From an archaeon (GTDB taxonomy: Archaea; Aenigmatarchaeota; Aenigmatarchaeia; GW2011-AR5): a stretch of 64,000 nucleotides of DNA. The DNA lies in NCBI GenBank assembly GCA_028279825.1, contig JANQNA010000003.1, positions 114,266 through 178,265 on the forward strand. Reading direction: 5' to 3'. Every line of letters begins with the position of its first letter. Positions within the stretch are counted from its first letter, which is position 1. Of this stretch, positions 9,231-36,355 are shown in pieces. The translations under genes and the position numbers were made by a program. The notes under the pieces are model-generated. The model saw nothing but the letters and a program-made list of their open reading frames with translations. It was not told the DNA's origin and made no database searches.

Positions 9231-9253
9231 ATGGGTCCAGCATGTATTAAACC
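9231..9253. repeat. att site: degenerate copy of the tRNA-Val 3' end
   Basis: atgggtccagcatgtattaaacc vs atgggtccagcaggaatcgaacc (20743..20765): 12 bp exact, then 4 mismatches. Confidence 0.8.
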
Positions 9254-9267
9254 GTAGGTTTGGTTCT

Positions 9268-10047
9268 CTACTCCTTTTTAGGAAATTCACCCTTCAGAGC
9301 ATCCGATGCTATTTTCTTTGCATCAGGTAAAAAATCTTTACTGATCATCCACCCAAGAAAACCCGACTCATTTTCGACCAGATAAGATAATGACTTGCCT
9401 CTATGTGGACCGAAATTTATTACAACCTCTTCACCTACCCAGACGAATTTACCTTCTTCATCAAGCCAGTTCGGGTTTCTTCTTTCATTACAAAAGTCAT
9501 GTAATTCGCGCATAGTTTTGGGTAAATCAGAGTATTGTTTTAATTGAGATTCCAGAATTTCAAATGTTGCTCTAACATCAGATTCAGAAGCGTGATGATT
9601 CTCCATTTCTTTTCCACAATATTTTTTATATGCTGCAGACAGATCTCGGGGATCATATTTATGATAAATTGTCTGAACATCCAAGATGTGACGTCCTTGC
9701 CTCGAGAATTCAACACCTGCTCTTCTAAACTCAGACTCAAGGATAGGAATGTCAAATCTTTTTACATTAAATCCACCAAGATCACACCCTTCTAAAAATT
9801 CTATGAGTTTTGGTGCGTATTGTTTAAAAGTTGGCTTATCTTGTATATCCGCATCAGTTATTCCATGAATAGCAGTTGCCTCTGGTGGAATAGGAACTCC
9901 TGGATTGATTCTTGTACTCAATATCTCCTCACTTTTATCGGGAAAGATTTTCAGAGCTGTTAGCTCTACAATTTTATCAGAAGGAGGACTAACTCCAGTA
10001 CTCTCCACATCGATAAAGACAACAGGTCTATTCAATTGAATATCCAT
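9268..10047 (-). CDS. DEDDh 3'-5' exonuclease (DNA Pol III epsilon / ExoX-like)
   Basis: DVESTG, GFNVKRFD and HHASESD motifs; C-terminal FGPHRG; start reassigned to MDIQL. Confidence 0.9.
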   Translation of the reverse strand: MDIQLNRPVVFIDVESTGVSPPSDKIVELTALKIFPDKSEEILSTRINPGVPIPPEATAIHGITDADIQDKPTFKQYAPKLIEFLEGCDLGGFNVKRFDIPILESEFRRAGVEFSRQGRHILDVQTIYHKYDPRDLSAAYKKYCGKEMENHHASESDVRATFEILESQLKQYSDLPKTMRELHDFCNERRNPNWLDEEGKFVWVGEEVVINFGPHRGKSLSYLVENESGFLGWMISKDFLPDAKKIASDALKGEFPKKE

Positions 10048-10143
10048 ATCAACACCCACTATTAGTAAGGTAGTAAAATACAAAAGGCTAAAGAAATAAT
10101 CCCAAACAACATATTTTAAATTCAAAGGTATCTATGAAAATTC

Positions 10144-10452
10144 ATGGACGTACTATTGGTTATGATTCCAATATTGTCATTTGTATTGGGTTATTTTTTA
10201 CCACAATCAGAAATCAGAGAATTTGAAAAACAAATTGCTCTCATTGTTGGCGTTTCTAGTGCCCTTAGTCTCTTGAATTTAATGCCTAGTAGCTTAATAA
10301 TAGACTCAGAGACAATGTCAACTTTTCTAAAAAATTCTGTAGGGATCATAATTGATACAACTTTAGAGACAGTCATGATTGCAATTATAAGCTCTGTTCT
10401 TGGTATAGTGGGCGTCGTGATCGGAAAAAACACTGAAATCGGTTGTGTATAA
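10144..10452 (+). CDS. Small membrane protein
   Basis: Three hydrophobic segments. Confidence 0.6.
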   Translation: MDVLLVMIPILSFVLGYFLPQSEIREFEKQIALIVGVSSALSLLNLMPSSLIIDSETMSTFLKNSVGIIIDTTLETVMIAIISSVLGIVGVVIGKNTEIGCV

Positions 10453-10558
10453 ACATCATAGCTTATAGTTCTTTACATTCTGTGATAATAGTCACAAGTA
10501 ATATATGACAAAATCTTTATTAATGAACGGTTTATTATAAGTACAGAATATATGGACA

Positions 10559-10996
10559 GTGTTAGTAATGATTAAGACTTTTGAAGCGGGATTCACTTTA
10601 CACCCTGCGGTTAATAACGGCAAAAGAAGTCAAAGATTAAGACCAGTTATAGAATTACCATTTAGATATGCTAGTGGCGAATCCTTGGATATATCATCTC
10701 TAATAGACTCTGGGGCAGATAGAAGTGTGTCATTTAAAGAGGTCGGGGAGGGTCTTGGAATAAAATTTGTCGGAAAACCGTCAGAGCCTGTTACAGGAAT
10801 AACTGGAGAGGAAAGTGCGTGGCAAAAACCAGTTTATGTTACGATAGGAAATGAAACTATCCATATTGATGTACTATGGATGGACAGAAAATTTGATCCT
10901 GATTCTGATTTTATGATGTCTCTTGGGCGAGAAAAAATATTCGACGTGTTCGATGTTTCCTTCACAAGAGATAAAAAAATAATATTTTCAAAATAA
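10559..10996 (+). CDS. Retropepsin-like (clan AA) aspartyl protease
   Basis: RPVI, LIDSGAD, VTGITG and LGRE..FDVF motifs. Confidence 0.88.
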   Translation: MLVMIKTFEAGFTLHPAVNNGKRSQRLRPVIELPFRYASGESLDISSLIDSGADRSVSFKEVGEGLGIKFVGKPSEPVTGITGEESAWQKPVYVTIGNETIHIDVLWMDRKFDPDSDFMMSLGREKIFDVFDVSFTRDKKIIFSK

Positions 10997-10998
10997 AA

Positions 10999-11214
10999 TT
11001 ACCAGGCCATTATCTTTTCTTTCTTTGGGTAACTTGTTATACCTATTTTTCTATTGGCGTAATTTTTTCGCAAAGCTGTAAGAACTTCTTTTATAGAATC
11101 ACCAAATAAAACAGCTCTATTATCGACCAGACCAACTATCCGACCCTCATATTTTGTGGAGTTCAAATCTCTAACATTTTTCGAATCAGAAGTCCTTAGC
11201 ATCGTGATAGCCAT
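10999..11214 (-). CDS. DUF5678-like small protein
   Basis: KYEGRIVGLVDNRAVLFGDS..EV pattern, typical of the DUF5678 partners of aspartyl proteases. Confidence 0.7.
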   Translation of the reverse strand: MAITMLRTSDSKNVRDLNSTKYEGRIVGLVDNRAVLFGDSIKEVLTALRKNYANRKIGITSYPKKEKIMAW

Positions 11215-11436
11215 AAATACCGCCTTTATAGGAACCTTTATAAGTAAATAACGCACCTAAGTCGTATTTAAACGTTTTTCACACTTTTGGTCATTTCAAC
11301 GGGTTTTGGTGTTTTTAAGTTTTGGAGCACAAAGGTCAATCATTTTACTATGATATATATGTGTGCAAAAAAATTTAACTTATTATGAATCCTTGATATC
11401 TCTTGTCAAAAACACAAATAACTTATTTGTAAACTT

Positions 11437-12120
11437 CTAATCATCTTCAGCATATTCTTCATCTGATTCTAAACCCTTTTTAGATCTGGTTATTTTTTCG
11501 TCAATATGCTCGTATACAACATTTGGTTTAATAGTCTCATCTTCTCCACCCGTTTCTTCGTGGTCCTTAGTTGTTTGTTCAGGTTTGCTTGTATTGAATA
11601 ATTCCCATTTGATTTTTTTCGCCTCAATGACCTTTTTTAGTTGACGTTCTTGTGAATTTAGAGTACTCTTTCCGCTTTTGACCTCTAGGAATATGACTTT
11701 TTTGATATCTTTTTTGCCCATGCCATCAAAAATAACAAAATCAATAGGAGCACCCATAAATTTCATATCAGAGGGGTTGTATGGAAATTTCGGCAGATAC
11801 GGGGATACTTGTTCCCACATTTTTCCAATTATCGTTCTACGTGATCTCTTGACAGCATCTTCACGTAGATACTTTTCAGATCCTTTTATCATATCTTTTA
11901 TCTCAGCAAGATCAGAAGCATATTTCATCTTCCAATCTTTGTCGAGTCCTTCGAATTTCAATTTCCACTCATTATTCTGTTCATTGAGTTCATTCTTCCA
12001 CTTTTCATCCAATAGTTTCTTTTTGTCTCCCCATTTACCTTTTTCACCCGCACGCTTCCCTAAAATGACACCAACTAGTAATGTGAGAGAAACTATGAGG
12101 ATCAATAATAAATCCATCAT
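11437..12120 (-). CDS. Membrane-anchored endonuclease related to Holliday junction resolvase (Endonuc_Holl family)
   Basis: N-terminal TM plus coiled coil, then SR..IIGK.WEQ.SPYLP, FMGAPIDFVIFDG and EVKSGKS.L. Confidence 0.88.
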   Translation of the reverse strand: MMDLLLILIVSLTLLVGVILGKRAGEKGKWGDKKKLLDEKWKNELNEQNNEWKLKFEGLDKDWKMKYASDLAEIKDMIKGSEKYLREDAVKRSRRTIIGKMWEQVSPYLPKFPYNPSDMKFMGAPIDFVIFDGMGKKDIKKVIFLEVKSGKSTLNSQERQLKKVIEAKKIKWELFNTSKPEQTTKDHEETGGEDETIKPNVVYEHIDEKITRSKKGLESDEEYAEDD

Positions 12121-12176
12121 CACACCTAATTTTAATAAATTGCCAAAATACATAAAGACTAGGGGTGGCAAGTGGT

Positions 12177-13247
12177 ATGAAATATAGTATAAGAGCTGTG
12201 GGTATTACAGTTTTGTGTATCTGTATTTTGTCCGCCAGTGCCTACGCCATTCCAGTTGGATTTATTGATATGAAATTGGACGAAAATCTAGATAAATTAC
12301 ATGTTAAAACAATGATAATGAATCCTGAACCCGTTACAAAGGGATGTCATGACGATTTAGGTAATTGTACAAAAGAATTTATGTTTACAACATGGTCTTG
12401 GCTTGCTACAGATACACCAGAAGAGGCGGAATTAAGAACACAGAGAATGTATATATTTTCTCATCCAGAAACAAAAGCTTACAAAATCGATAACTGTTCA
12501 GATTTAGCTATCGGATATATATTAGAGCCAAATATTTTATTGAGACTTAATCGAAGTAAGGATCCACCATTTGATATTGATATTCTTCCATCCGAAAACA
12601 CAACCATTTCACTTGCAATCTTAAATGATTCACACTCTTCCTGTACTTATTTTGATTTTTTTTATCTGAATCCAAACCTAGTGGATAAAAGAAATCAGTT
12701 TTTTTACCCCTTTGATACGTACACTGCCGTAATAGGAATATACATACCAGGCAAACCTTATGCAAATGTAGAAATGGAAGTTCCAGATGATTTTAAAATT
12801 AACAATATAATGAGTTCACCTACCACCAACAAAAAATTCAATACCGAAAATATAGCATTTGTTGCATATAACTTATACGAAAACAAAACAACAGTAACAA
12901 TAACTTTCGCAAGATATAAAGACTTATCAGATTTCATATACCCATTATTTTCACTATTAACACTGCCTATTATAATCATGTTTTATGTTTTTTACTTATA
13001 CAAATCAAAAGATGAAACAACCAATAAAAATATAAAATATTTAGGCTTTGTTTTTATTACCCTGCCGTTATTTTTTAATTTTGCATCATTTTATACTGAT
13101 AAACCTAGTGTTTTTACCGTACTCGATATTAGCTTTATTTTAAGCGTCTTATTTATGATATTTGGTTTGTATATAATCCAAAAAACAAAAAAAGTAAAGG
13201 GTAAGAATAAGCATATAAAACAAGTCATTTGTAATACACAAGGTTAA
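12177..13247 (+). CDS. Exported/membrane protein with three C-terminal TM helices
   Basis: Signal peptide, FYPFDTY motif and C-terminal hydrophobic helices. Confidence 0.7.
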   Translation: MKYSIRAVGITVLCICILSASAYAIPVGFIDMKLDENLDKLHVKTMIMNPEPVTKGCHDDLGNCTKEFMFTTWSWLATDTPEEAELRTQRMYIFSHPETKAYKIDNCSDLAIGYILEPNILLRLNRSKDPPFDIDILPSENTTISLAILNDSHSSCTYFDFFYLNPNLVDKRNQFFYPFDTYTAVIGIYIPGKPYANVEMEVPDDFKINNIMSSPTTNKKFNTENIAFVAYNLYENKTTVTITFARYKDLSDFIYPLFSLLTLPIIIMFYVFYLYKSKDETTNKNIKYLGFVFITLPLFFNFASFYTDKPSVFTVLDISFILSVLFMIFGLYIIQKTKKVKGKNKHIKQVICNTQG

Positions 13248-13251
13248 GGAG

Positions 13252-13404
13252 ATGACCATCAATATGAAATGCTCAAGATGCAGTAAGAAAGCCGAATTTC
13301 TTATTCCCAGTATAAAAAAAGGTCTTTGTGAGGATCATGCAGTTGAACACTTATCGGATACAAAAAATCAAGGATTTTTACTAAAGATTGAAAAGAAGAC
13401 ATGA
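13252..13404 (+). CDS. Small zinc-finger protein (50 aa)
   Basis: Hand-translated MTINMKCSRCSKKA...LCEDH; AAGGAG upstream. Confidence 0.55.
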   Translation: MTINMKCSRCSKKAEFLIPSIKKGLCEDHAVEHLSDTKNQGFLLKIEKKT

Positions 13405-13728
13405 TTGACGTTTATAATCATGGAATCCAAGAACCTATATCAGTTGATACATGAAGGTCTGGAGGGATGGCGTAAAACAGGAGTTCTTCCAAATGGAGAA
13501 AAATGGTTCCCATATGACCAAGTACAAACATCGCCACACGTGAGAAGATTCCAAGTAAGTTCATTTACATCGTTGTTTTGCTCAAAGTTCAACATGAATA
13601 GACAAATAGCCATATCAGTTCTTAGATATCTTGAGGATTCTGATATTATCAAGATTGTCTGGCAAAGTCCAAGAGGTTCTTATTTTAATTTGTTAAAATG
13701 CGACCAATTCAAAAAAAAGAAATCATAA
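13405..13728 (+). CDS. Hypothetical protein, possible winged helix
   Basis: Helix pattern followed by a beta-hairpin (LEDSDIIKIVW..RGSYF). Confidence 0.5.
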   Translation: MTFIIMESKNLYQLIHEGLEGWRKTGVLPNGEKWFPYDQVQTSPHVRRFQVSSFTSLFCSKFNMNRQIAISVLRYLEDSDIIKIVWQSPRGSYFNLLKCDQFKKKKS

Positions 13729-14341
13729 AGAATTGTAAATATAGATCAAAAATATCTTTTTCTTTTTTGTTTAATTTGTTATTATTTATGTAAATATGTG
13801 GAACAAAACTCATTGCTAAATCCATAAAAGTATATTTTCTCTTTTGCTTTTGATAAAAAACTAGTTTATTCGTACCGATGATAATATGTTTTTTACCTGA
13901 TAACATACACGAACTTACCATATCATCTTTTATTTTTGAAACATATTTTTTATTGAAGTAATCATTTCTCCATGTGGGGGAAACGGAGATTTCTTTAATG
14001 ACGTCTTTAAAGTGTTTTCTTAGGGTTTCAATTATTTCTTCGATCACACCTTCTTTTATAAACCCTATTTGAGTGTTTGCAGTGATGCCAAGTTTAACAA
14101 TTGGATCCAGATTATAATCATAAATAACTGTATATCTTTTTCCAGTTTTTGGTATTTTATATCGCTTAATAAGTTTTGCAGAGGACATCTGTTTAAGGTA
14201 TTGATTAACTACAGGTTGTTTGAATCCCGTGTCTTCAGAAATGTCATGCTCCGTTTTCTTTCCACTAGCTACAGACAAAAATACTTGCAACATACTGTTA
14301 CTTTTCCATATATCCTTGATTTTTTCCATTACAGACACCAT
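13709..14341 (-). CDS. ArsR-like winged-HTH transcriptional regulator
   Basis: TEHDISEDTGFKQPVVNQYLKQM..AKLI HTH; start reassigned to MVSVME. Confidence 0.75.
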   Translation of the reverse strand: MVSVMEKIKDIWKSNSMLQVFLSVASGKKTEHDISEDTGFKQPVVNQYLKQMSSAKLIKRYKIPKTGKRYTVIYDYNLDPIVKLGITANTQIGFIKEGVIEEIIETLRKHFKDVIKEISVSPTWRNDYFNKKYVSKIKDDMVSSCMLSGKKHIIIGTNKLVFYQKQKRKYTFMDLAMSFVPHIYINNNKLNKKEKDIFDLYLQFFMISFF

Positions 14342-14369
14342 TATAGGTAATAACCTATTATTACCTATA
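14342..14369. promoter_or_regulatory. Perfect 12-bp inverted repeat, putative operator
   Basis: TATAGGTAATAA-CCTA-TTATTACCTATA between the divergent HTH and RHH genes. Confidence 0.7.
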
Positions 14370-14403
14370 TAGATATATAAGATTATCATTCATATGTTTC
14401 ATT

Positions 14404-14532
14404 ATGTCAGTAAAAAGAATTTGTTTGTCAGTAGAAAAGGATTTATTAGAAAAAATAGATTTGACACGTGAAGATGTTTCAAGAAGTAAATTCATTGCAC
14501 GAATTCTTCGAAATAAAATTGATGCTCTATGA
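14404..14532 (+). CDS. Ribbon-helix-helix (CopG-like) protein, 42 aa
   Basis: Hand-translated MSVKRICLSVEKDLLEKIDLTREDVSRSKFIARILRNKIDAL. Confidence 0.75.
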   Translation: MSVKRICLSVEKDLLEKIDLTREDVSRSKFIARILRNKIDAL

Positions 14533-14687
14533 AAAATAATTTAACACTTTATCAAATTTTGACGTCTCCCCTTGATAATGAAATTGAGAGATATATGAGA
14601 CGACAAGGCCTAGGCTGGTATATTTCTCGTCGCAAGAAATTTCAGAGGTATTTGATTAAGCAGCATGAGGGTGATTCTGGTGTATAA
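14529..14687 (+). CDS. Small basic hypothetical protein (52 aa)
   Basis: ATGA overlap with the RHH gene. Confidence 0.45.
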   Translation: MKNNLTLYQILTSPLDNEIERYMRRQGLGWYISRRKKFQRYLIKQHEGDSGV

Positions 14688-14804
14688 GTATGTGTATTTA
14701 CCATCGACATATCACATTGAATATGGATATACATATAATGTGTACGAAGTTCCTGTTAAGGGTTCCCATTGTCAATACACATACACAATAGGAGACGCAT
14801 TGTC

Positions 14805-15062
14805 ATGAAGCATCGAATAAATATATTGGTCGATTATCAAAATTGGAGAGATTTTGTAAAACTCAATGGAAAGGGTGGGCTAAGTAGATTCGTTGATGAG
14901 AAAATATCTGAATATCTAGAAAAAATGCGTTTGCGATGGTGGATTGTATGTCCCGAATGTAAGCAAAAGGTCCACATACGAATAGTTCTTAATAATGGTG
15001 GTCATTGTGATAAAAACAATTGCAAAGGCGTTATAGCAGAAAAAATCAACGGGGTGAGTTGA
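14805..15062 (+). CDS. RHH-like plus zinc-finger protein
   Basis: RINILVD...GGLSRFVDEKI followed by CPEC...C...C. Confidence 0.6.
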   Translation: MKHRINILVDYQNWRDFVKLNGKGGLSRFVDEKISEYLEKMRLRWWIVCPECKQKVHIRIVLNNGGHCDKNNCKGVIAEKINGVS

Positions 15063-15063
15063 A

Positions 15064-15330
15064 ATGGAAGTATTTGAGGAGAGAACATCATTGCTAAAAC
15101 TGGATGGTCTTACACCAGCAGAATTAGGCTTTATTTGCTACGCTATTCAAAAGGCCATGATAGATGCCAAAAAGGAAGATATTCTATACATAGATGCGGA
15201 TATCAATTGTCCTTTTTATCTATCGTTTGAGGAAGCTAAGGCACTTCTTGAGAAAATAAAAAAGGTGTGTATACGGGATGAAATGCGTTTTGCTATGGGT
15301 GTGGACCCAGAAATAGCAAAGATAGCTTAG
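15064..15330 (+). CDS. Hypothetical protein
   Basis: GGGGTGA ribosome-binding site; starts 1 nt after the previous stop. Confidence 0.6.
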   Translation: MEVFEERTSLLKLDGLTPAELGFICYAIQKAMIDAKKEDILYIDADINCPFYLSFEEAKALLEKIKKVCIRDEMRFAMGVDPEIAKIA

Positions 15331-15388
15331 CTTTGTTCTGGAAAAACCATCGAAAACATAACAATTCTCCATATTTTTTCGGTAATTT

Positions 15389-16018
15389 ATGATATTCATG
15401 GGAAAGTTGACTGTAGAGGACTGTAAAATATTATCAGTCAGGGAAGTTTTGAAGGGGGTAACAAATCCAGAGACCATTAGAGATAGAGATCTAGTGGAAT
15501 ATGTCACTATCGTGGTGGGAATAAACGGATGGGATGGCAAATTCGACCAGAGAATAGGATTTGTACAAACACCAACTCAATTTAATGGATTCAGAGTCTG
15601 GTTTAAATGTCCGCATTGCACTACAAAGGTAAATAAAATTTATTCGCCTCAGGGAAGATATCCATTCGCATGCCGTAAATGTTATAGATTAGACTATGAA
15701 CTGCATCTTAAGGGCAAAACTAAGAGATATTCAGCCATAAAATGTCGGAAAGCAGAAGAAAAATATTTCAAAACACATGGTAATTCAAAGAAATATGAAA
15801 AAAGACGTAATGAATGGCTTTTTTGGCGGAAAAAGAGGGATATTTATCTTATAGAAATGTGTATGAAAACAAGTCGGGAATTTGAAAAAATTACCTCACG
15901 CCACAATATTGGAGATATAAAAGATGATTGCTATCAGAACTTTAATCCCAAAAGAAGAGAAAGAAGGCACCATCCAGCTAAGCTAATTGGTATGTGCTCA
16001 AAGCTTGGGTGGTGGTGA
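15389..16018 (+). CDS. Zinc-finger protein of a type seen in mobile elements
   Basis: GFRVWFKCPHC...KIY...FACRKCYRLDY. Confidence 0.7.
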   Translation: MIFMGKLTVEDCKILSVREVLKGVTNPETIRDRDLVEYVTIVVGINGWDGKFDQRIGFVQTPTQFNGFRVWFKCPHCTTKVNKIYSPQGRYPFACRKCYRLDYELHLKGKTKRYSAIKCRKAEEKYFKTHGNSKKYEKRRNEWLFWRKKRDIYLIEMCMKTSREFEKITSRHNIGDIKDDCYQNFNPKRRERRHHPAKLIGMCSKLGWW

Positions 16019-16045
16019 GTGCATCCATTTTTGTCATAAAGAGAA

Positions 16046-16369
16046 TTAATTGTTATCTTTGGGCGATATTTTTTCAAGACTTATTTTCAGTTCTTTTGCC
16101 TTGTCAAGAATTTGTTCACGTTTTGTAGCATCGGTCAACCTATAACGTTTCTCTTTGAAACCACTACCTTTTCCAGATAGACCTTCCTCTACCAATCCCA
16201 TAACTATCATTTCGCGCAACACTTTCTGTAGACCGCCGTCCGTGAGTCCAGCAGCCTCTTTAAGATCAGTCCACCTCTTTGGTCCAGACTCAAGTGCCTC
16301 TAATACAGAGTAAGTGCTATCGCGCATAAGTATCGCCACAGATTTCCATTCCTTAGGAGCATAACGCAT
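16046..16369 (-). CDS. HxlR-like winged-HTH regulator
   Basis: GPKRWTDLK...LTDGGLQKVLREM...GLV...YRLT. Confidence 0.85.
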   Translation of the reverse strand: MRYAPKEWKSVAILMRDSTYSVLEALESGPKRWTDLKEAAGLTDGGLQKVLREMIVMGLVEEGLSGKGSGFKEKRYRLTDATKREQILDKAKELKISLEKISPKDNN

Positions 16370-16471
16370 TATAGGTTATTGCAATATCTAACTTATAAGA
16401 TATATACACTCTATTAGAATATAAAATATCTAATAGATAGTTATATAAAGGTACGAGTTAATAAACTATTT

Positions 16472-17023
16472 ATGAAAAATAGATGGACAGCAACTATCAT
16501 AGTTGCTATAATCTTAATTGTTGGATGTACTTCAAACGATACAACCTCAGGTAGTACAGAAATAAATAAAATAGTAGCACAGTCCCAGGCTGAAATAAAT
16601 TGTCCTTTCTTGAACAAAAACATTGTATTACAAAGCACGCGCATACCCGAAAAAGATACACTTTGGACATGGCACGATTACGGTAACTATAAGCCTGAGT
16701 TTAGTAAATATAGATTTGGCATATCATGTTCAATGGGAAATGAGGCAGGCGAAAACAAGAATTATTTTTACTGCAAATTTGACACAGGATGTGTAGAAGT
16801 TACTGAGAAAGATGTAATAAAAGGCTACCTGAGAACTTACGCTAAAGCTGGTTATAAAGTCACCGATTCTATGATTGATCACGTGAATGAATACGGATCT
16901 GATTCAACTGGTCGAGTGAATTTAACATCGTACAACATAAGTGCTGAAATGATGGAATGTGTTTCAAATCAAAAAGAAAATAATGACATTGTAGACTGTC
17001 ATAAATATGAGCCTCCATTTTAG
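16472..17023 (+). CDS. Putative lipoprotein
   Basis: Hydrophobic signal ending IVGC. Confidence 0.7.
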   Translation: MKNRWTATIIVAIILIVGCTSNDTTSGSTEINKIVAQSQAEINCPFLNKNIVLQSTRIPEKDTLWTWHDYGNYKPEFSKYRFGISCSMGNEAGENKNYFYCKFDTGCVEVTEKDVIKGYLRTYAKAGYKVTDSMIDHVNEYGSDSTGRVNLTSYNISAEMMECVSNQKENNDIVDCHKYEPPF

Positions 17024-17133
17024 ATATATCACCTTCTGAAAAACTAAGAAATTTTATTGACGGAAGAAGCAATGAAAATACTCCCAAAAGATAATAGAAT
17101 TAATTTAAAAAAATTTGTTATATAAATCTTATA

Positions 17134-17853
17134 ATGTCAAATACATTTTTTAAAAATATTGTATTAGTTTTATTAATTTTATCTGTTTTTTTTGTTGCTG
17201 GGTGTACAAATCCTAAAAATTTGAATACGGATACAGTTAACGAAAACATAAAGAAAATTAATGACTCTGTGGTTGAAATATGGGGTTGCCAAGTTCCAAT
17301 AGAGAGAAATCCCATCTGTGAATTAAGTCCAGGATTTTCTTTTAATGATAGAGGCAATATAATGACCACATATCATACAATAAAAAACAATCCTTATAGG
17401 TATATAGTTTTTTCTAATGGCACAAGACAAGCAGTACCTGAAACAAGTTCATTGTATGCTTTTAGTGAATACCAAGATTTAGCTTTTTTAATTATTGATA
17501 CAGATGTTCCAAAGGTGATTTTTGAAAATTTTACAATAAGTGAAAGTGATATGCGTAATAATTCAGTAGGCTTCATAGGGTTCCCTAATGGCGTTAAAAT
17601 AAAGACTTTAGCTGTAGGAAAAATTAGTGACATAGTTAGGGATTCTGAATATTTGTTTACTGTTTTTAAGATAGAGGGATCAGTTTATTCGGGTAACAGT
17701 GGAAGTCCCGTGTTTTTAATGGATACAGGTAAAGTGATAGGTGTTTTGGTTAAAGGTGATCATAAAACAAATCTTACAGGTTTTGCTATACCTCTTGACA
17801 GAACATACTTGGATGAATTTGATAAATCCTTGAACAGTGTAGATTCCAGGTAA
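17134..17853 (+). CDS. Trypsin-like serine protease, lipoprotein
   Basis: VAGC lipobox; triad motifs TTYH, DLAFL and GNSGSP. Confidence 0.88.
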   Translation: MSNTFFKNIVLVLLILSVFFVAGCTNPKNLNTDTVNENIKKINDSVVEIWGCQVPIERNPICELSPGFSFNDRGNIMTTYHTIKNNPYRYIVFSNGTRQAVPETSSLYAFSEYQDLAFLIIDTDVPKVIFENFTISESDMRNNSVGFIGFPNGVKIKTLAVGKISDIVRDSEYLFTVFKIEGSVYSGNSGSPVFLMDTGKVIGVLVKGDHKTNLTGFAIPLDRTYLDEFDKSLNSVDSR

Positions 17854-17880
17854 GCATACAAAAACTAATTATTGAACAAA

Positions 17881-17888
17881 TTTATAAA
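17881..17888 (+). promoter_or_regulatory. Archaeal TATA box
   Basis: TTTATAAA with a purine-rich upstream segment, beginning about 28 nt before the GGGCAC start of the structured RNA. Confidence 0.55.
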
Positions 17889-17907
17889 CTTCAAGTCTAA
17901 TAATCTT

Positions 17908-17998
17908 TAGGGCACATGGTGCCGAGTCGGAGTCTAAGGCCCCGAAAGGGTTCGGTCGTTTGGCCGCCGAAGGCAAAGAACACTTGGGACGTGCCCTA
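17908..17998 (+). ncRNA. Putative structured RNA / 5' leader, family not recognised
   Basis: TAGGGCAC/GTGCCCTA closing stem, GTGCCGAGT/ACTTGGGAC inner stem, and hairpins CCC-GAAA-GGG, CGGTC-GTTT-GGCCG and GCC-GAA-GGC. 55/87 G+C in 17910..17996 within AT-rich DNA. Confidence 0.7.
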
Positions 17999-18006
17999 TC
18001 TTAATT

Positions 18007-19488
18007 ATGAGTTCAAATATAGTATTCCGCTGTAAAACTTCTGATGATTTCAAAATATTTAAAAAAGAAGTGTCAGATGAGTTTGATATAGAAGACAAGG
18101 AAACCAAGGAAAGTTTTGTTTCTAACAGATTTATTCTTACAGGTTTGAAGATAACGATTACATACTATATGAGCGGTAAGGTAATGATACAGGGTAGTCC
18201 AGATATTGCTGAAATTGAAAAACTTGTTAATATCGCGAAAAGACGTTTTAAGTTTGATACACCCAGATTGTTCAAGAAGTCAATAAAAGATATATCAGAA
18301 ATCAACAAGAAATATTTTATTGGACTTGATGAGTCAGGTGTTGGAGAAACTTTTGGTTGTATGTACCTTGGTATTGCTATAATAAAAAAAGAAGATCTTC
18401 TCGAAGCCCATAAAATATTTCGGCCACAGGATGTAAAACAATTCGATGTAAAAACTGTAATAGACCTTAATATAAAATCGAATAAATTCTTTGAGAAAAA
18501 TCTTAAGAGATACAATGCAAGAGATATTGACACTTCGAACAAAATATTACTTCTTGACAGGGGGTATGAAGAGCTTCTGTTGAAATATAAAAACTTGATA
18601 CCCGATTCTTGTATTATTCTTGATGACTACGGAATTGGAACAGTTTTTAAAAACTTTATAAAGAAATGGGAAAAGGCAGGAGCGATATTCATATTACGTC
18701 ATAAGGCCGATAGTATTTATTTACCACCGATGGCAGCCTCTATTATTGCCAGGAAATCAAGAAATACAGAAATTAAGACGCTTACATCAAAATATTCAAT
18801 TATAGATCCAAAAACAGGGGAAAAGATAGAACTCACAACAGGTAGTCCGTCAAACCCATTAACAGAAAAATGGCTTATAGCATATCGTAGAGCCAATCCA
18901 TACTCAGATTTCCCATTTTTCGTAAGAAATAAATGGAAAAATGTACAGGAAATAGAAAAAAGGTTTCCGAAAAAAAGCATATCCCATGTCTTTAGCTGTC
19001 AAAAATGTGGAAATGGTCTTGGTAAAGTATACATAAGATATGACAAAATTAAGGACAGCACCGAGATTCAATGTCCGACTTGTGGTGAACAAGTTAATCC
19101 AATTTTCTTCAAAAAGAATTTCTCGTACGGAACAATAGTTATGGATACAAGTTCTCTAATAACAAGGATAGTATCAAAAGACTTACGAACAACAAAAATA
19201 TTTGAAAACATGAAATTTATTATACCTTCTTGTGTATATGAAGAGATTGACACAAAACAACCTGATAAAAAGAAAGGCGCTGAAAATGAAATAAGTTTTC
19301 TCAAAGAGTGTCAAACAAAAGGTATTATAGAGTTAGAGGATGTTGATGTAGATATATTATCTGGTTTATCAAAAGACAAGAAAATTATAGAAGTTGCGAG
19401 ACAACATAAAGCATCACTGATAACGTATGATAGAACTCAAAATTTATGGTCATCAATAAGATCTTTTGTATTTTATATAGTCAACTAA
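18007..19488 (+). CDS. Fusion: TBP-like (RNase HIII N-terminal) + RNase HII/HIII catalytic + Zn ribbon + PIN domain
   Basis: ITYYMSGKVMIQG; IGLDESGVGETFG, ILDDY, HKADS, AASIIAR; CQKC...CPTC; VMDTSSLI, VYEEI, DKKII, LITYDR. Confidence 0.85.
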   Translation: MSSNIVFRCKTSDDFKIFKKEVSDEFDIEDKETKESFVSNRFILTGLKITITYYMSGKVMIQGSPDIAEIEKLVNIAKRRFKFDTPRLFKKSIKDISEINKKYFIGLDESGVGETFGCMYLGIAIIKKEDLLEAHKIFRPQDVKQFDVKTVIDLNIKSNKFFEKNLKRYNARDIDTSNKILLLDRGYEELLLKYKNLIPDSCIILDDYGIGTVFKNFIKKWEKAGAIFILRHKADSIYLPPMAASIIARKSRNTEIKTLTSKYSIIDPKTGEKIELTTGSPSNPLTEKWLIAYRRANPYSDFPFFVRNKWKNVQEIEKRFPKKSISHVFSCQKCGNGLGKVYIRYDKIKDSTEIQCPTCGEQVNPIFFKKNFSYGTIVMDTSSLITRIVSKDLRTTKIFENMKFIIPSCVYEEIDTKQPDKKKGAENEISFLKECQTKGIIELEDVDVDILSGLSKDKKIIEVARQHKASLITYDRTQNLWSSIRSFVFYIVN

Positions 19489-20696
19489 TTAGAATCAGTT
19501 TTAATATTCTTCTTATACTCCCTTAATATTTCTTTATCGGTCTTTGTAAGTAACTCTGGGGCTTTTGCCAAAATGTTCTGAAGGAGAGTGTTGACATTTA
19601 TTGCAGTTTCCAATGAAAGTATTGAACCACACGAGTTGCAGAACTTGGATCCAGGACTATTTCTCTGTTTACATGTTCTGCATACTTGTATTGTTGTTTT
19701 CACTTGATACTTATTTTCAATATCAATACCGTTCATGCGTTTTATTGCGTCTTCTGTATCGCGCGCAGACATATGAACATATACACTTGGCATGTCTGAT
19801 CCACCTGACCATCCATAATAGGTCTTCATCTGCGCCTCTGTTAGGAATTTAGCAGCTCTTGTGGCGGAGCTGTGCCTGAATAGGTGTGGATGAATACGTT
19901 TCTTGATACCAGCTCTCGTGGCAAGTAATTTTAACACCTTATTCGCACCAGCATATGTAAGCTGGTCATATCCTCTGTTACCTTCTATCCTGTTGTGTTT
20001 TGTAAGGAAAAGGAAACTATCGGGATTGCTCTTTTTAGGATGAATATCCAAATACGTTGCCAATATTGGAACACTTGCTATAATCGTAACACGTCTCATG
20101 CCTGTTTTACCATTCAGCATAACAAATCCAATGTTATCTTGGAATACTATGTGCTTTATTTTGGTGTTTAGAATTTCTCCTATACGCGCACCTGATTCGT
20201 ATAACAATAAGGTAAATGCCTTGTCCCTTGGGTTATCCGCAGCCTCTAACATCTTTTCAAGTTCTTCTTCTGTTATTAGATCATCAGGGAGTTTGTTATT
20301 AGATTTCTTTTCTGTTGTTTCAATCCAGGAGACAACACCTGGGTAGTGACCCTTTTCTTCTATATTAAAGAGCCACTTATAGAATTTCTTCAATGCAATG
20401 TTGTGATTATTCTTTGTTTTACTTGTCCATTTTTGTGATTCAATCAGACTCTTTAACTTGACTATATCACTTTTCTGTGCTGCAGTAAATTTCTTCTTTA
20501 GATGAGATGCAATAAACCATATAGAATAAAGATCTTTTGTTATTGTAGCTGGTTTCAACCCACGCGCCTTGCACAATTCAGTAAATTCTGCTATTTTCTT
20601 TCTGTTGAATGAAGATATAGTTTTGTCAGTTTGGATTTTCTTTTCTATGTGTTTCAATCGTTCGTCAAACTTGTGTATATCTCTGGTCTCGTCCAT
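19485..20696 (-). CDS. int: Tyrosine recombinase/integrase with C-terminal zinc ribbon
   Basis: LYESGARIGE, GKTGMR, HPHLFRHS, YGW...VYVH; C-terminal CRTC...CNSC. Confidence 0.95.
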   Translation of the reverse strand: MDETRDIHKFDERLKHIEKKIQTDKTISSFNRKKIAEFTELCKARGLKPATITKDLYSIWFIASHLKKKFTAAQKSDIVKLKSLIESQKWTSKTKNNHNIALKKFYKWLFNIEEKGHYPGVVSWIETTEKKSNNKLPDDLITEEELEKMLEAADNPRDKAFTLLLYESGARIGEILNTKIKHIVFQDNIGFVMLNGKTGMRRVTIIASVPILATYLDIHPKKSNPDSFLFLTKHNRIEGNRGYDQLTYAGANKVLKLLATRAGIKKRIHPHLFRHSSATRAAKFLTEAQMKTYYGWSGGSDMPSVYVHMSARDTEDAIKRMNGIDIENKYQVKTTIQVCRTCKQRNSPGSKFCNSCGSILSLETAINVNTLLQNILAKAPELLTKTDKEILREYKKNIKTDSN

Positions 20697-20743
20697 ATTT
20701 CATATTTATGGGGCGTTATATATAAACTTCACCTGAGGTTAAA

Positions 20744-20855
20744 TGGGTCCAGCAGGAATCGAACCTGCAGTCTCATCCACGTCAAGGACACGTCATACCA
20801 TTTTCCCAACCTTCCGCTTTTAAAGTCATGGAAAGGTTGTCTAGACCATGGACCC
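20744..20855 (-). tRNA. tRNA-Val(GAC) with ~40-nt non-canonical D-loop intron (~20801..20840); integration target
   Basis: Acceptor GGGTCCA/TGGACCC+A; GGTCTAG^TGGTATGAC after intron removal; anticodon loop TTGACGT; T-arm GCAGGTTCGATTCCTGC. Confidence 0.88.
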
Positions 20856-36196: not shown

Positions 36197-36296
36197 TGCT
36201 CCCATGGGGATTTGAACCCCAGTCACCAGGTCCGCAACCTGGCGTTCTCTCCGGAAGAAAAGTTATCCTTCTTTATCCAAGCTAAACTATAGGAGC
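36197..36296 (-). tRNA. tRNA-Arg(GCG) with ~26-nt non-canonical D-loop intron (~36248..36273)
   Basis: GCTCCTA/TGGGAGC+A; CCAGG-TTGCGGA-CCTGG; TGGGGTTCAAATCCCCA; extra hairpin AGAAGG...TTTTCT in the D-loop. Confidence 0.88.
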
Positions 36297-36355
36297 CTAG
36301 AGATACATCGTTACTCCATTTAAAAAGTTAATGATTGAAATTATAACTGATAACA

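Follow-up and report, generated by a model that had tools for sequence, protein, structure and literature searches.

The window analysed here is a 64,000-nucleotide (nt) stretch of an archaeal genome from the Aenigmatarchaeota (contig JANQNA010000003.1, positions 114,266 to 178,265), and it carries a conserved structured RNA directly upstream of the gene for a nuclease of 493 amino acids (aa). The nuclease combines an RNase HII/HIII core with a zinc (Zn) ribbon and a PIN domain, and the RNA is exclusively linked to this PIN-bearing enzyme. We rate the RNA as a previously undescribed family and the protein (RNase HIII-like, Zn ribbon and PIN) as a new nuclease architecture. The host genome is archaeal, with a size of 0.98 Mb and 41% G+C. 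The elements concerned are as follows.

17881-17888, + strand: TATA-like box TTTATAAA, 20-27 nt 5′ of the RNA start, as read from the sequence
17908-17998, + strand: conserved structured RNA, 91 nt, about 62% G+C, with the ends TAGGGCAC...GTGCCCTA; cmsearch 74.7 bits, E 1.1e-13
18007-19488, + strand: 493-aa nuclease with TBP-like N-domain, RNase HII/HIII core, C4 Zn ribbon and PIN domain
aa 1-85 of the nuclease: TBP-like (DUF3378-like) N-domain
aa 103-320: RNase HII/HIII core with D108, E109, D206 and D235
C331, C334, C356 and C359: C4 Zn ribbon
aa 376-475: PIN domain with D380, E413, D457 and D475

The RNA stands out from its surroundings by composition, the G+C fraction being 0.62 over 17910-17997 (the range matched by cmsearch) against 0.32 in the surrounding kilobase and 0.41 over the contig. 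An earlier note on this DNA, made from its letters, had pointed to a box at 17881, to a G+C-rich segment of 87 nt and to a long closing helix ending 8 nt before the ATG of the 493-aa open reading frame (ORF). The box is indeed present, as TTTATAAA at 17881-17888, and the helix ends at 17998 with the ATG at 18007; the G+C richness likewise stands, at 62%, whereas the length had to be corrected to 91 nt, the shorter reading having omitted the outer T-A and A-T pairs. Folding with RNAfold, a check that the note had proposed, gave a minimum free energy (MFE) of -39.5 kcal/mol with z = -2.52, which is modest support: since 3 out of 200 shuffled sequences were equally stable, the folding energy is weak evidence when taken alone. 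The decisive evidence for a structured RNA is comparative and not thermodynamic.

Upstream regions of homologous genes were reached via the protein and then read, and the same RNA was found there with different letters in its helices. Twenty sequences were aligned for a consensus, and a covariance model was built for family searches. The consensus fold consists of 28 pairs in five helices, and compensatory double changes were observed in 21 of these pairs, compared to 10.8 expected, so that the covariation suggested as a check in the earlier note is present. In the alignment, 96.4% of the cells are paired (82.8% after shuffling) and the covariation score is 0.515 (0.246 after shuffling), with none of 500 shuffles reaching any of the observed measures. 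As a control, the partner columns were slid by 1-3 positions, on which pairing fell to 37-46%. Every helix shows compensatory changes among loci whose proteins are only 33-58% identical to the nuclease of the window, and the raw counts are inflated by kinship among the loci, several marine ones being near-identical. The parts of the fold in the window, including a putative kink-turn (K-turn), are listed below.

17908-17915 / 17991-17998, + strand: P1 (helix 1), 5 of 7 pairs changed on both sides
between P1 and P2: asymmetric loop, 5′ side ATGGTG in the window, usually TCGGTA elsewhere and absent in four members; 3′ side of 3 nt
17922-17927 (CCGAGT) / 17982-17987 (ACTTGG), + strand: P2 (helix 2), 7 of 7 pairs changed on both sides
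17929-17931, + strand: non-bulged strand of the putative K-turn, GGA, directly 5′ of P3
17932-35 / 17971-74, + strand: P3, first pair G-C in most members
17938-40 / 17966-68, + strand: P3b, which follows P3 and a small internal loop and closes the three-way junction
17941-50, + strand: P4 hairpin, loop variable among members and GAAA in the window
17951-53, + strand: junction linker TTC, UUC being invariant
17954-65, + strand: P5 hairpin with GTTT loop
17975-17980, + strand: bulged strand of the putative K-turn, with an AAA bulge, G-A and then A

In helices 3-5, pairing amounts to 96-100% and both sides are changed in 9 of the 14 pairs. The letters of the junction are conserved (GGC-CCC...GGG-UUC-helix-GCC) while the helices vary, and the short loop of P4 is the only variable single-stranded part of the RNA. 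The earlier note had drawn three hairpins around the junction. Those with GAAA and GUUU loops were recovered in the consensus, whereas the third, GCC-GAA-GGC, was not: its GCC...GGC bases belong to the 3′ strands of P3b and P3 in the covarying consensus, and the junction therefore has two hairpins. It was also observed that the letters GGTACC, drawn from the loop and P2 (GGTGCC at 17919-17924 of the window, with an equivalent in 17 other members), are self-complementary. They might let two RNA molecules pair, or the match may be a coincidence, the CC being part of P2.

Between P2 and P3 the RNA carries the sequence signature of a K-turn, in which we take P3 to be the canonical and P2 the non-canonical stem by strand nomenclature. 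On the non-bulged strand the order P2-N-GA-P3 was found in all 24 sequences that cover it, and on the bulged strand the order P3-NNN-GA-N-P2 in 25 out of 25; the letters of the bulge vary, the GA is invariant and the flanking helices covary. Such a motif is defined, in the passage of PMC1874613 that describes it, by a canonical helix, a 3-nt bulge and tandem G.A / A.G pairs that open the non-canonical helix. A gene of the L7Ae family is encoded in the host genome (87 bits), and L7Ae has been reported, in passages of two papers on archaeal mRNA leaders, to bind K-turns there (PMC5539422, PMC6298567). The K-turn of this RNA would probably be bound by L7Ae as well.

When compared with Rfam 15, the RNA of the window remained without a match, both at gathering score and with E values allowed up to 10, and eight other members likewise at E up to 1. 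The earlier note had named an ordinary known element as the finding that would overturn its reading; in addition to the missing Rfam match, there was no tRNA call and no repeat. Three specific identities were considered and rejected. A tRNA or tRNA-like gene was suggested by a string resembling a D-arm and a variable arm, but no ARAGORN or Rfam tRNA match, no T-arm and no anticodon arm were found. An integrase attachment (att) site at the RNA was discarded as the att-like repeat is located at 9231-9253 and 20743-20765, and a resemblance of letters in the P5 loop to a hammerhead was discounted because they stand in a loop and not in a junction. In the literature, no description of the RNA or of an RNase HIII-PIN fusion was found, the supplements of motif-discovery papers being outside the search. 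The main text of Weinberg et al. 2017 contains no 'RNase H', 'PIN' or 'k-turn', its motif lists being placed in the supplements (PMC5737381).

The nuclease was matched by the Pfam profile RNase_HII (PF01351) with 9.2e-12 and 45.7 bits against a cut-off of 25.8. In the same database, DUF3378 (the N-domain of RNase HIII) reached 22.3 bits, under its cut-off of 27, PIN_4 reached 21.7 bits, just under the cut-off of 21.9, and the Zn ribbon was also just under. TIGR00716 gave 61.8 bits against an equivalog cut-off of 161.2, and the NCBIfam models of RNase HII and HIII remained well under theirs. In a profile alignment, residues 49-271 were matched to Bst RNase HIII (2d0a). An AlphaFold2 model built with 14 homologs had a mean predicted local distance difference test score (pLDDT) of 85. 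A Foldseek search with this model retrieved RNase HIII (4py5, 3vn5, 2d0a) and archaeal RNase HII (1uax, TM 0.79 over the target), as well as the PIN domains 3ix7 and 2hww (SMG6) with a probability of 1.00. At the level of a predicted structure, all four domains are supported by the model and by Foldseek, in line with the composition claimed in the earlier note (RNase HIII-type N-domain, RNase H core, Zn ribbon and PIN).

No variation was seen, in the alignment of 14 homologs, at the RNase H residues D108, E109, D206 and D235, at the four cysteines or at the PIN residues D380, E413, D457 and D475. The DEDD positions correspond, in an alignment, to those of the RNase HII from Pyrococcus horikoshii (1uax). 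Judged by domain and catalytic residues, the enzyme is a predicted type 2 RNase H, yet no equivalog of RNase HII or HIII, and both nuclease heads are apparently active. It is accessory and not a housekeeping enzyme, since a separate, ordinary RNase HII of 233 aa is encoded elsewhere in the host genome and the nuclease query found no match in 10 other genomes of the same genus (E <= 1e-5). At the order level, a single short contig (G030) was matched, into the PIN part.

The protein search yielded 16 proteins from a collection of 5.8 billion (the window's own included), 78 metagenome loci and 18 genome loci. In viral contigs, neither a relative of the nuclease nor a match to a degenerate pattern of the RNA was found, and nucleotide BLAST of the RNA in 41 related genomes returned chance matches of 14-21 nt only. 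With cmsearch over 98 sources (726 kb), 25 matches were obtained, 23 of them distinct. When the downstream genes were tabulated, as the earlier note had proposed, all 25 were found on the strand of the nuclease gene and directly upstream of it. When tblastn re-scoring was combined with the model matches, the RNA was present at each of the 21 PIN-bearing loci that have 120 nt or more of upstream sequence (22 of 22 counting the window), and at only 1 of 43 PIN-less RNase HIII-like loci with enough flank, most of the latter being Nitrosopumilus and Nitrososphaeraceae records. Three PIN-bearing loci without upstream sequence were left out of this count. One further locus, with 88 nt upstream, has a 5′-truncated copy of the RNA, and where loci are cut by a contig end the RNA was seen in 1 of 15. 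The pairing of the RNA with an RNase H, Zn ribbon and PIN nuclease, first claimed from this one copy, is therefore specific and consistent.

The lone PIN-less locus with the RNA is L061, where the gene stops after the Zn ribbon and a convergent integrase comes next; this may reflect disruption of the module or an error in the assembly. The gene order at L061:758-2850 is that of the window, with an integrase abutting the truncated nuclease.

The host genome contains one copy of the RNA according to a scan with the covariance model, and in this and two other genomes the single copy lies beside the gene. Among 151 sampled genomes of the phylum, the host genome alone scored for the RNA under stricter filters, by which weak matches may be lost. 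As the protein was the way to all homolog loci, only the 153 genomes scanned with the model could have revealed an RNA located elsewhere than at the gene. When 307 ORFs from 23 loci were compared all against all, no other protein was common to more than three loci, the one apparent exception being a mixed cluster of antisense ORFs and integrases. Since no neighbouring gene is conserved, the RNA and the nuclease form a self-contained module of two parts. Its distribution is sporadic.

Two of the loci are casposons, as they combine a Cas1-type integrase, a family B polymerase and terminal inverted repeats. L030:3857-12877 (9.0 kb) is bounded by perfect inverted repeats of 76 nt and L033:1617-9316 (7.7 kb) by perfect ones of 79 nt, and both enclose Cas1, the RNA, the nuclease and PolB, the genes of L033 having been assigned through blastp clusters with L030. 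The module is placed between a solo Cas1 (5.7e-42) and a protein-primed family B polymerase (DNA_pol_B_2, 2.5e-24). The perfect repeats suggest recent activity of these casposons. Neighbours were annotated at about 10 loci. An EcoRII-C-like gene adjoins the module in L028, an 892-aa N6_Mtase/Eco57I gene is near it in L104, a Fic gene, an OLD/GajA-like ATPase-TOPRIM gene and an integrase are near it in L043, and another integrase in L108. Mobile elements carry the module from one archaeal genome to another: casposons at L030 and L033, and a probable tRNA-integrated island in the window. The features of this island are given here.

9231-9253, + strand: the tRNA 3′ end repeated on the left-hand side, with 19/23 positions identical and an exact run of 12 nt
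9268-10125, - strand: RNase_T-type exonuclease
11437-12171, - strand: Holliday-junction-resolvase-related endonuclease
within the island: several helix-turn-helix proteins
17134-17853, + strand: trypsin-like peptidase, directly 5′ of the RNA; PADLOC RT-Protease_XI 7e-14, LmuA 1.5e-7
19485-20696, - strand: tyrosine integrase, convergent with the nuclease gene and overlapping its stop codon; Phage_integrase 8e-21, phrog_1 integrase 3e-27
20743-20765: right-hand attachment repeat, equal to the tRNA 3′ end
20744-20855, - strand: tRNA gene interrupted by an intron in its D-arm region and matched over 20744-20807 by the Rfam tRNA model (30.3 bits); a 7-bp acceptor stem was read from the letters

The att-like repeat, a stretch of lowered G+C at about 10-21 kb (0.29-0.37, down from 0.40-0.44), and the integrase, which stands at the tRNA end, indicate that 9231-20765 is probably an 11.5-kb island integrated at the tRNA gene; an integrated element, with the integrase next to the nuclease, was also what the earlier note had described. 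No capsid-like gene was recognised in the island. The trypsin-like peptidase, given its matches to PADLOC models of protease components in defence systems, could be another defence-type cargo gene. A second tRNA gene with an intron in the D-arm is seen at about 36197-36300 on the - strand; both are missed by ARAGORN and half-detected by Rfam (30.3 bits each). The list of tRNA genes returned for the genome by the intron mode of ARAGORN holds many dubious calls, and the tRNA set needs dedicated annotation.

An A/T-rich, TATA-like box was found by eye about 20-33 nt 5′ of P1 in all 22 listed loci. This is the archaeal TATA spacing for transcription starting at the first base of the RNA, and the box would thus be a promoter from which the RNA begins at its own TATA-driven start. 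Among the sequencing runs listed for this stretch, all of them DNA runs of one study, there was no RNA run. The RNA and the start codon are separated by 3 to 38 nt. A short spacer (up to about 11 nt) and an ATG were found at eight loci, which include the window, L031, L034, L036 and L041; the spacer is about 25 nt in L108 and 30-38 nt in the remaining loci, all of which except L028 have a TTG, CTG or GTG start together with an A/T box or a T-run in the spacer. At the short-spacer loci the RNA and the ORF would have to be transcribed together, and the RNA must be an mRNA leader. At the long-spacer loci it could be either a leader or a separate small RNA that is followed by a second promoter. 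When the RNA of the window was folded together with the first 34 nt of the ORF, the AUG was unpaired in the MFE structure.

At the long-spacer loci L029, L030, L032, L033, L035, L037-L040 and L042-L044, the nuclease ORF seemingly begins with TTG or CTG, and in L030 there is no in-frame ATG, GTG or TTG between the upstream stop codon and the conserved N-terminus of the nuclease. These starts suggest deliberately weak initiation or an unusual start.

A potentially dangerous nuclease that has this RNA as its sole conserved partner is most likely controlled by it. The reading that we favour, tentatively and at slightly less than an even chance, is that the nuclease itself recognises the RNA, which would be either a cis-acting autoregulatory leader or a released inhibitor resembling an RNA antitoxin. 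The RNA (about 88 nt in the family) folds into a stalk (P1 and P2), a putative K-turn and a three-way junction with two hairpins, and the L7Ae of the host would probably hold the K-turn. The folded RNA would then be recognised by the nuclease and would limit the synthesis or the activity of the enzyme, in cis as part of the mRNA or after its release. On loss of this control, the RNase H head could attack RNA:DNA hybrids and the PIN head single-stranded RNA, either of invaders or of the host. We infer that the RNA is transcribed, that L7Ae and the nuclease bind it and that the outcome is toxicity or defence. The earlier note had proposed an antitoxin, decoy, guide or cis-regulator of the nuclease, a proposal that our results support in part.

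Several points weigh against this reading. Simple occlusion of the start codon is unlikely, because the spacer varies between 3 and 38 nt and the AUG is unpaired; and as the A/T box seen in the spacer of the long-spacer loci could be a second promoter or a terminator, a purely cis-acting leader would not be universal. PIN toxins are normally accompanied by protein antitoxins. In the known type III toxin-antitoxin systems, the antitoxin RNAs are tandem arrays of short repeats that are processed by the toxin, and here no tandem array was detected at 17000-19600 with Tandem Repeats Finder, there being one copy of the RNA per genome. PADLOC assigned no defence family to the nuclease beyond a weak match to a PIN family (CARF_PIN, E 0.0017), and the defence-gene neighbourhoods, known from about 10 loci, are guilt by association. 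The enzyme could also serve the element in replication or repair or in primer removal, as an RNase H with a flap-type activity, and be non-toxic.

It is unlikely that the RNA is a leader read by host factors alone, in which case L7Ae or another host RNA-binding protein would set the translation or stability of the nuclease mRNA and the nuclease would never touch the RNA. The invariant K-turn signature and the L7Ae gene in the genome agree with this, as do the short-spacer loci, the window included, at which the RNA and the ORF must be co-transcribed; a precedent for L7Ae on archaeal mRNA leaders is given in passages of PMC5539422 and PMC6298567. A K-turn needs only about 20 nt, however, and L7Ae leaves the equally conserved three-way junction unexplained. 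The variable spacer of 3-38 nt and an AUG that is not sequestered do not fit well with control of this kind either, nor does the strict tie of the RNA to one gene family across very different hosts.

A further reading is that of an archaeal addiction or abortive-infection module of a new type, made of RNA and protein. The L7Ae-clamped RNA would hold the nuclease inactive, and once infection or loss of the element interfered with L7Ae supply or with synthesis of the RNA, the enzyme would be freed to degrade RNA:DNA hybrids and RNA. We consider this reading rather unlikely.

A small molecule, such as a nucleotide signal, might be sensed by the three-way junction as its aptamer and so switch expression of the nuclease; this appears quite improbable. 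A riboswitch would account for the highly conserved letters of the junction next to variable helices and for the position in a 5′ leader, and the K-turn could fold the junction back onto the stalk, as one does in some bacterial riboswitches. Against it, no conserved expression platform or alternative pairing was found, the spacer and the start context vary, the RNA serves a single non-metabolic gene family, and there was no Rfam riboswitch match at E up to 1-10; riboswitches are also rare in archaea. A role in processing or stability is very improbable: a self-cleaving ribozyme, a signal for trimming the leader or a cap-like protection of the 5′ end of the mRNA would suit a conserved junction at the very 5′ end of the predicted transcript and a module that moves between hosts with its own putative promoter, but Rfam 15 gave no ribozyme match, the conserved purine-rich letters stand in a hairpin loop, unlike those of a hammerhead junction, and a mere stabiliser would not need such conservation of sequence.

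A guide or scaffold, by which the RNase H/PIN enzyme would be programmed against a nucleic-acid target in the manner of an omega RNA, has hardly any likelihood. It is true that a structured RNA stands beside a nuclease gene on casposons and that an RNase H head is suited to cleavage within an RNA:DNA hybrid. The RNA has no free variable segment to act as a guide, because its two ends pair with each other in P1, which covaries, and the 5′ end is the presumed transcription start; single-stranded variation is confined to the short P4 loop, and no repeats or spacers are present nearby. Finally, an origin by chance or from some ordinary known element (a tRNA or its fragment, an att site, a transposon end or a random G+C-rich hairpin), which the unusual tRNA introns missed by ARAGORN and the closeness to an integrase had made worth considering, is refuted to near certainty by compensatory changes beside the same gene even at loci without an integrase and by the single copy.

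Among known systems, the module resembles the type III toxin-antitoxin pairs (ToxIN, CptIN, TenpIN) in that an RNA gene lies upstream of a ribonuclease gene and is co-oriented with it, that there is no protein partner, that carriage is by mobile elements or defence islands and that a possible T-run separates the RNA and the ORF at some loci. It is different in having a single 88-nt RNA with a K-turn and a three-way junction and in its archaeal host, and the nuclease is not of the ToxN, CptN or TenpN type, Pfam, PDB and Foldseek giving RNase HII/HIII and PIN. Autoregulatory leaders are known for the bacterial RNase genes rnc and rne, and Regnase-1, an RNase with a PIN domain and a zinc finger, cleaves a stem-loop in its own mRNA. 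As in these cases, the transcript of a nuclease gene would itself contain a conserved structure, and the PIN and zinc elements of the module recall Regnase-1, but there is no homology in sequence or structure, and the module gene is archaeal and mobile. The module is not a member of the type III systems as judged by these comparisons; its closest functional analogue would be a type III pair or the leader of an autoregulated RNase. IscB, with an upstream omega (HEARO) RNA, and TnpB are transposon nucleases with adjacent structured RNAs. The arrangement of a structured RNA beside a nuclease gene on a transposable element is alike, whereas the module RNA has no free guide segment and no Rfam HEARO match, and the nuclease fold is another one.

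The L7Ae-bound archaeal leaders have in common with the module a K-turn in a 5′ leader and a host with L7Ae; they are described as plain stem-loops with a K-turn, found on the L7Ae gene and on a few other genes (PMC5539422, PMC6298567), whereas the module RNA also has a three-way junction, likewise conserved, and is restricted to a single mobile nuclease family. Two-headed RNases of conflict systems, in which HEPN is fused to RNase H or TBP-like domains and which are predicted to act in defence, are described in a section of PMC3710099. These also have two nuclease heads, one directed at RNA:DNA hybrids via an RNase HIII-type TBP-like domain; the second head is HEPN there and PIN here, and that section describes no associated RNA. 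The fusion found in the window agrees with this concept of two-headed enzymes. With bacterial RNase HIII and archaeal RNase HII the enzyme shares the DEDD core, which aligns with 1uax, and its N-domain can be aligned with Bst 2d0a, but it adds a Zn ribbon and a PIN domain, scores below the equivalog level and is accessory.

To our knowledge, very few structured regulatory RNAs have been described in archaea, and we know of none in the small-genome lineages sampled here. Covariation gives the present RNA good support, its small size makes it accessible to biochemistry at once, and its strict pairing with one nuclease family offers a concrete hypothesis that can be tested. If the RNA restrains the nuclease, RNA-based control of toxins or RNA-based defence would extend to archaea and to casposons, the functions of whose cargo are, as far as we know, largely unexplained. 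If the switch depends on L7Ae, it would be a natural example of the K-turn/L7Ae device that is used in synthetic biology. Should the L7Ae-clamped addiction module prove true, archaea would gain their first RNA-antitoxin-like system, and no such system before it would have used a universal ribosomal and small nucleolar ribonucleoprotein component as a co-factor; it would also give a function to casposon cargo. In either case, a new RNA family and a new family of accessory nucleases become available to annotation resources.

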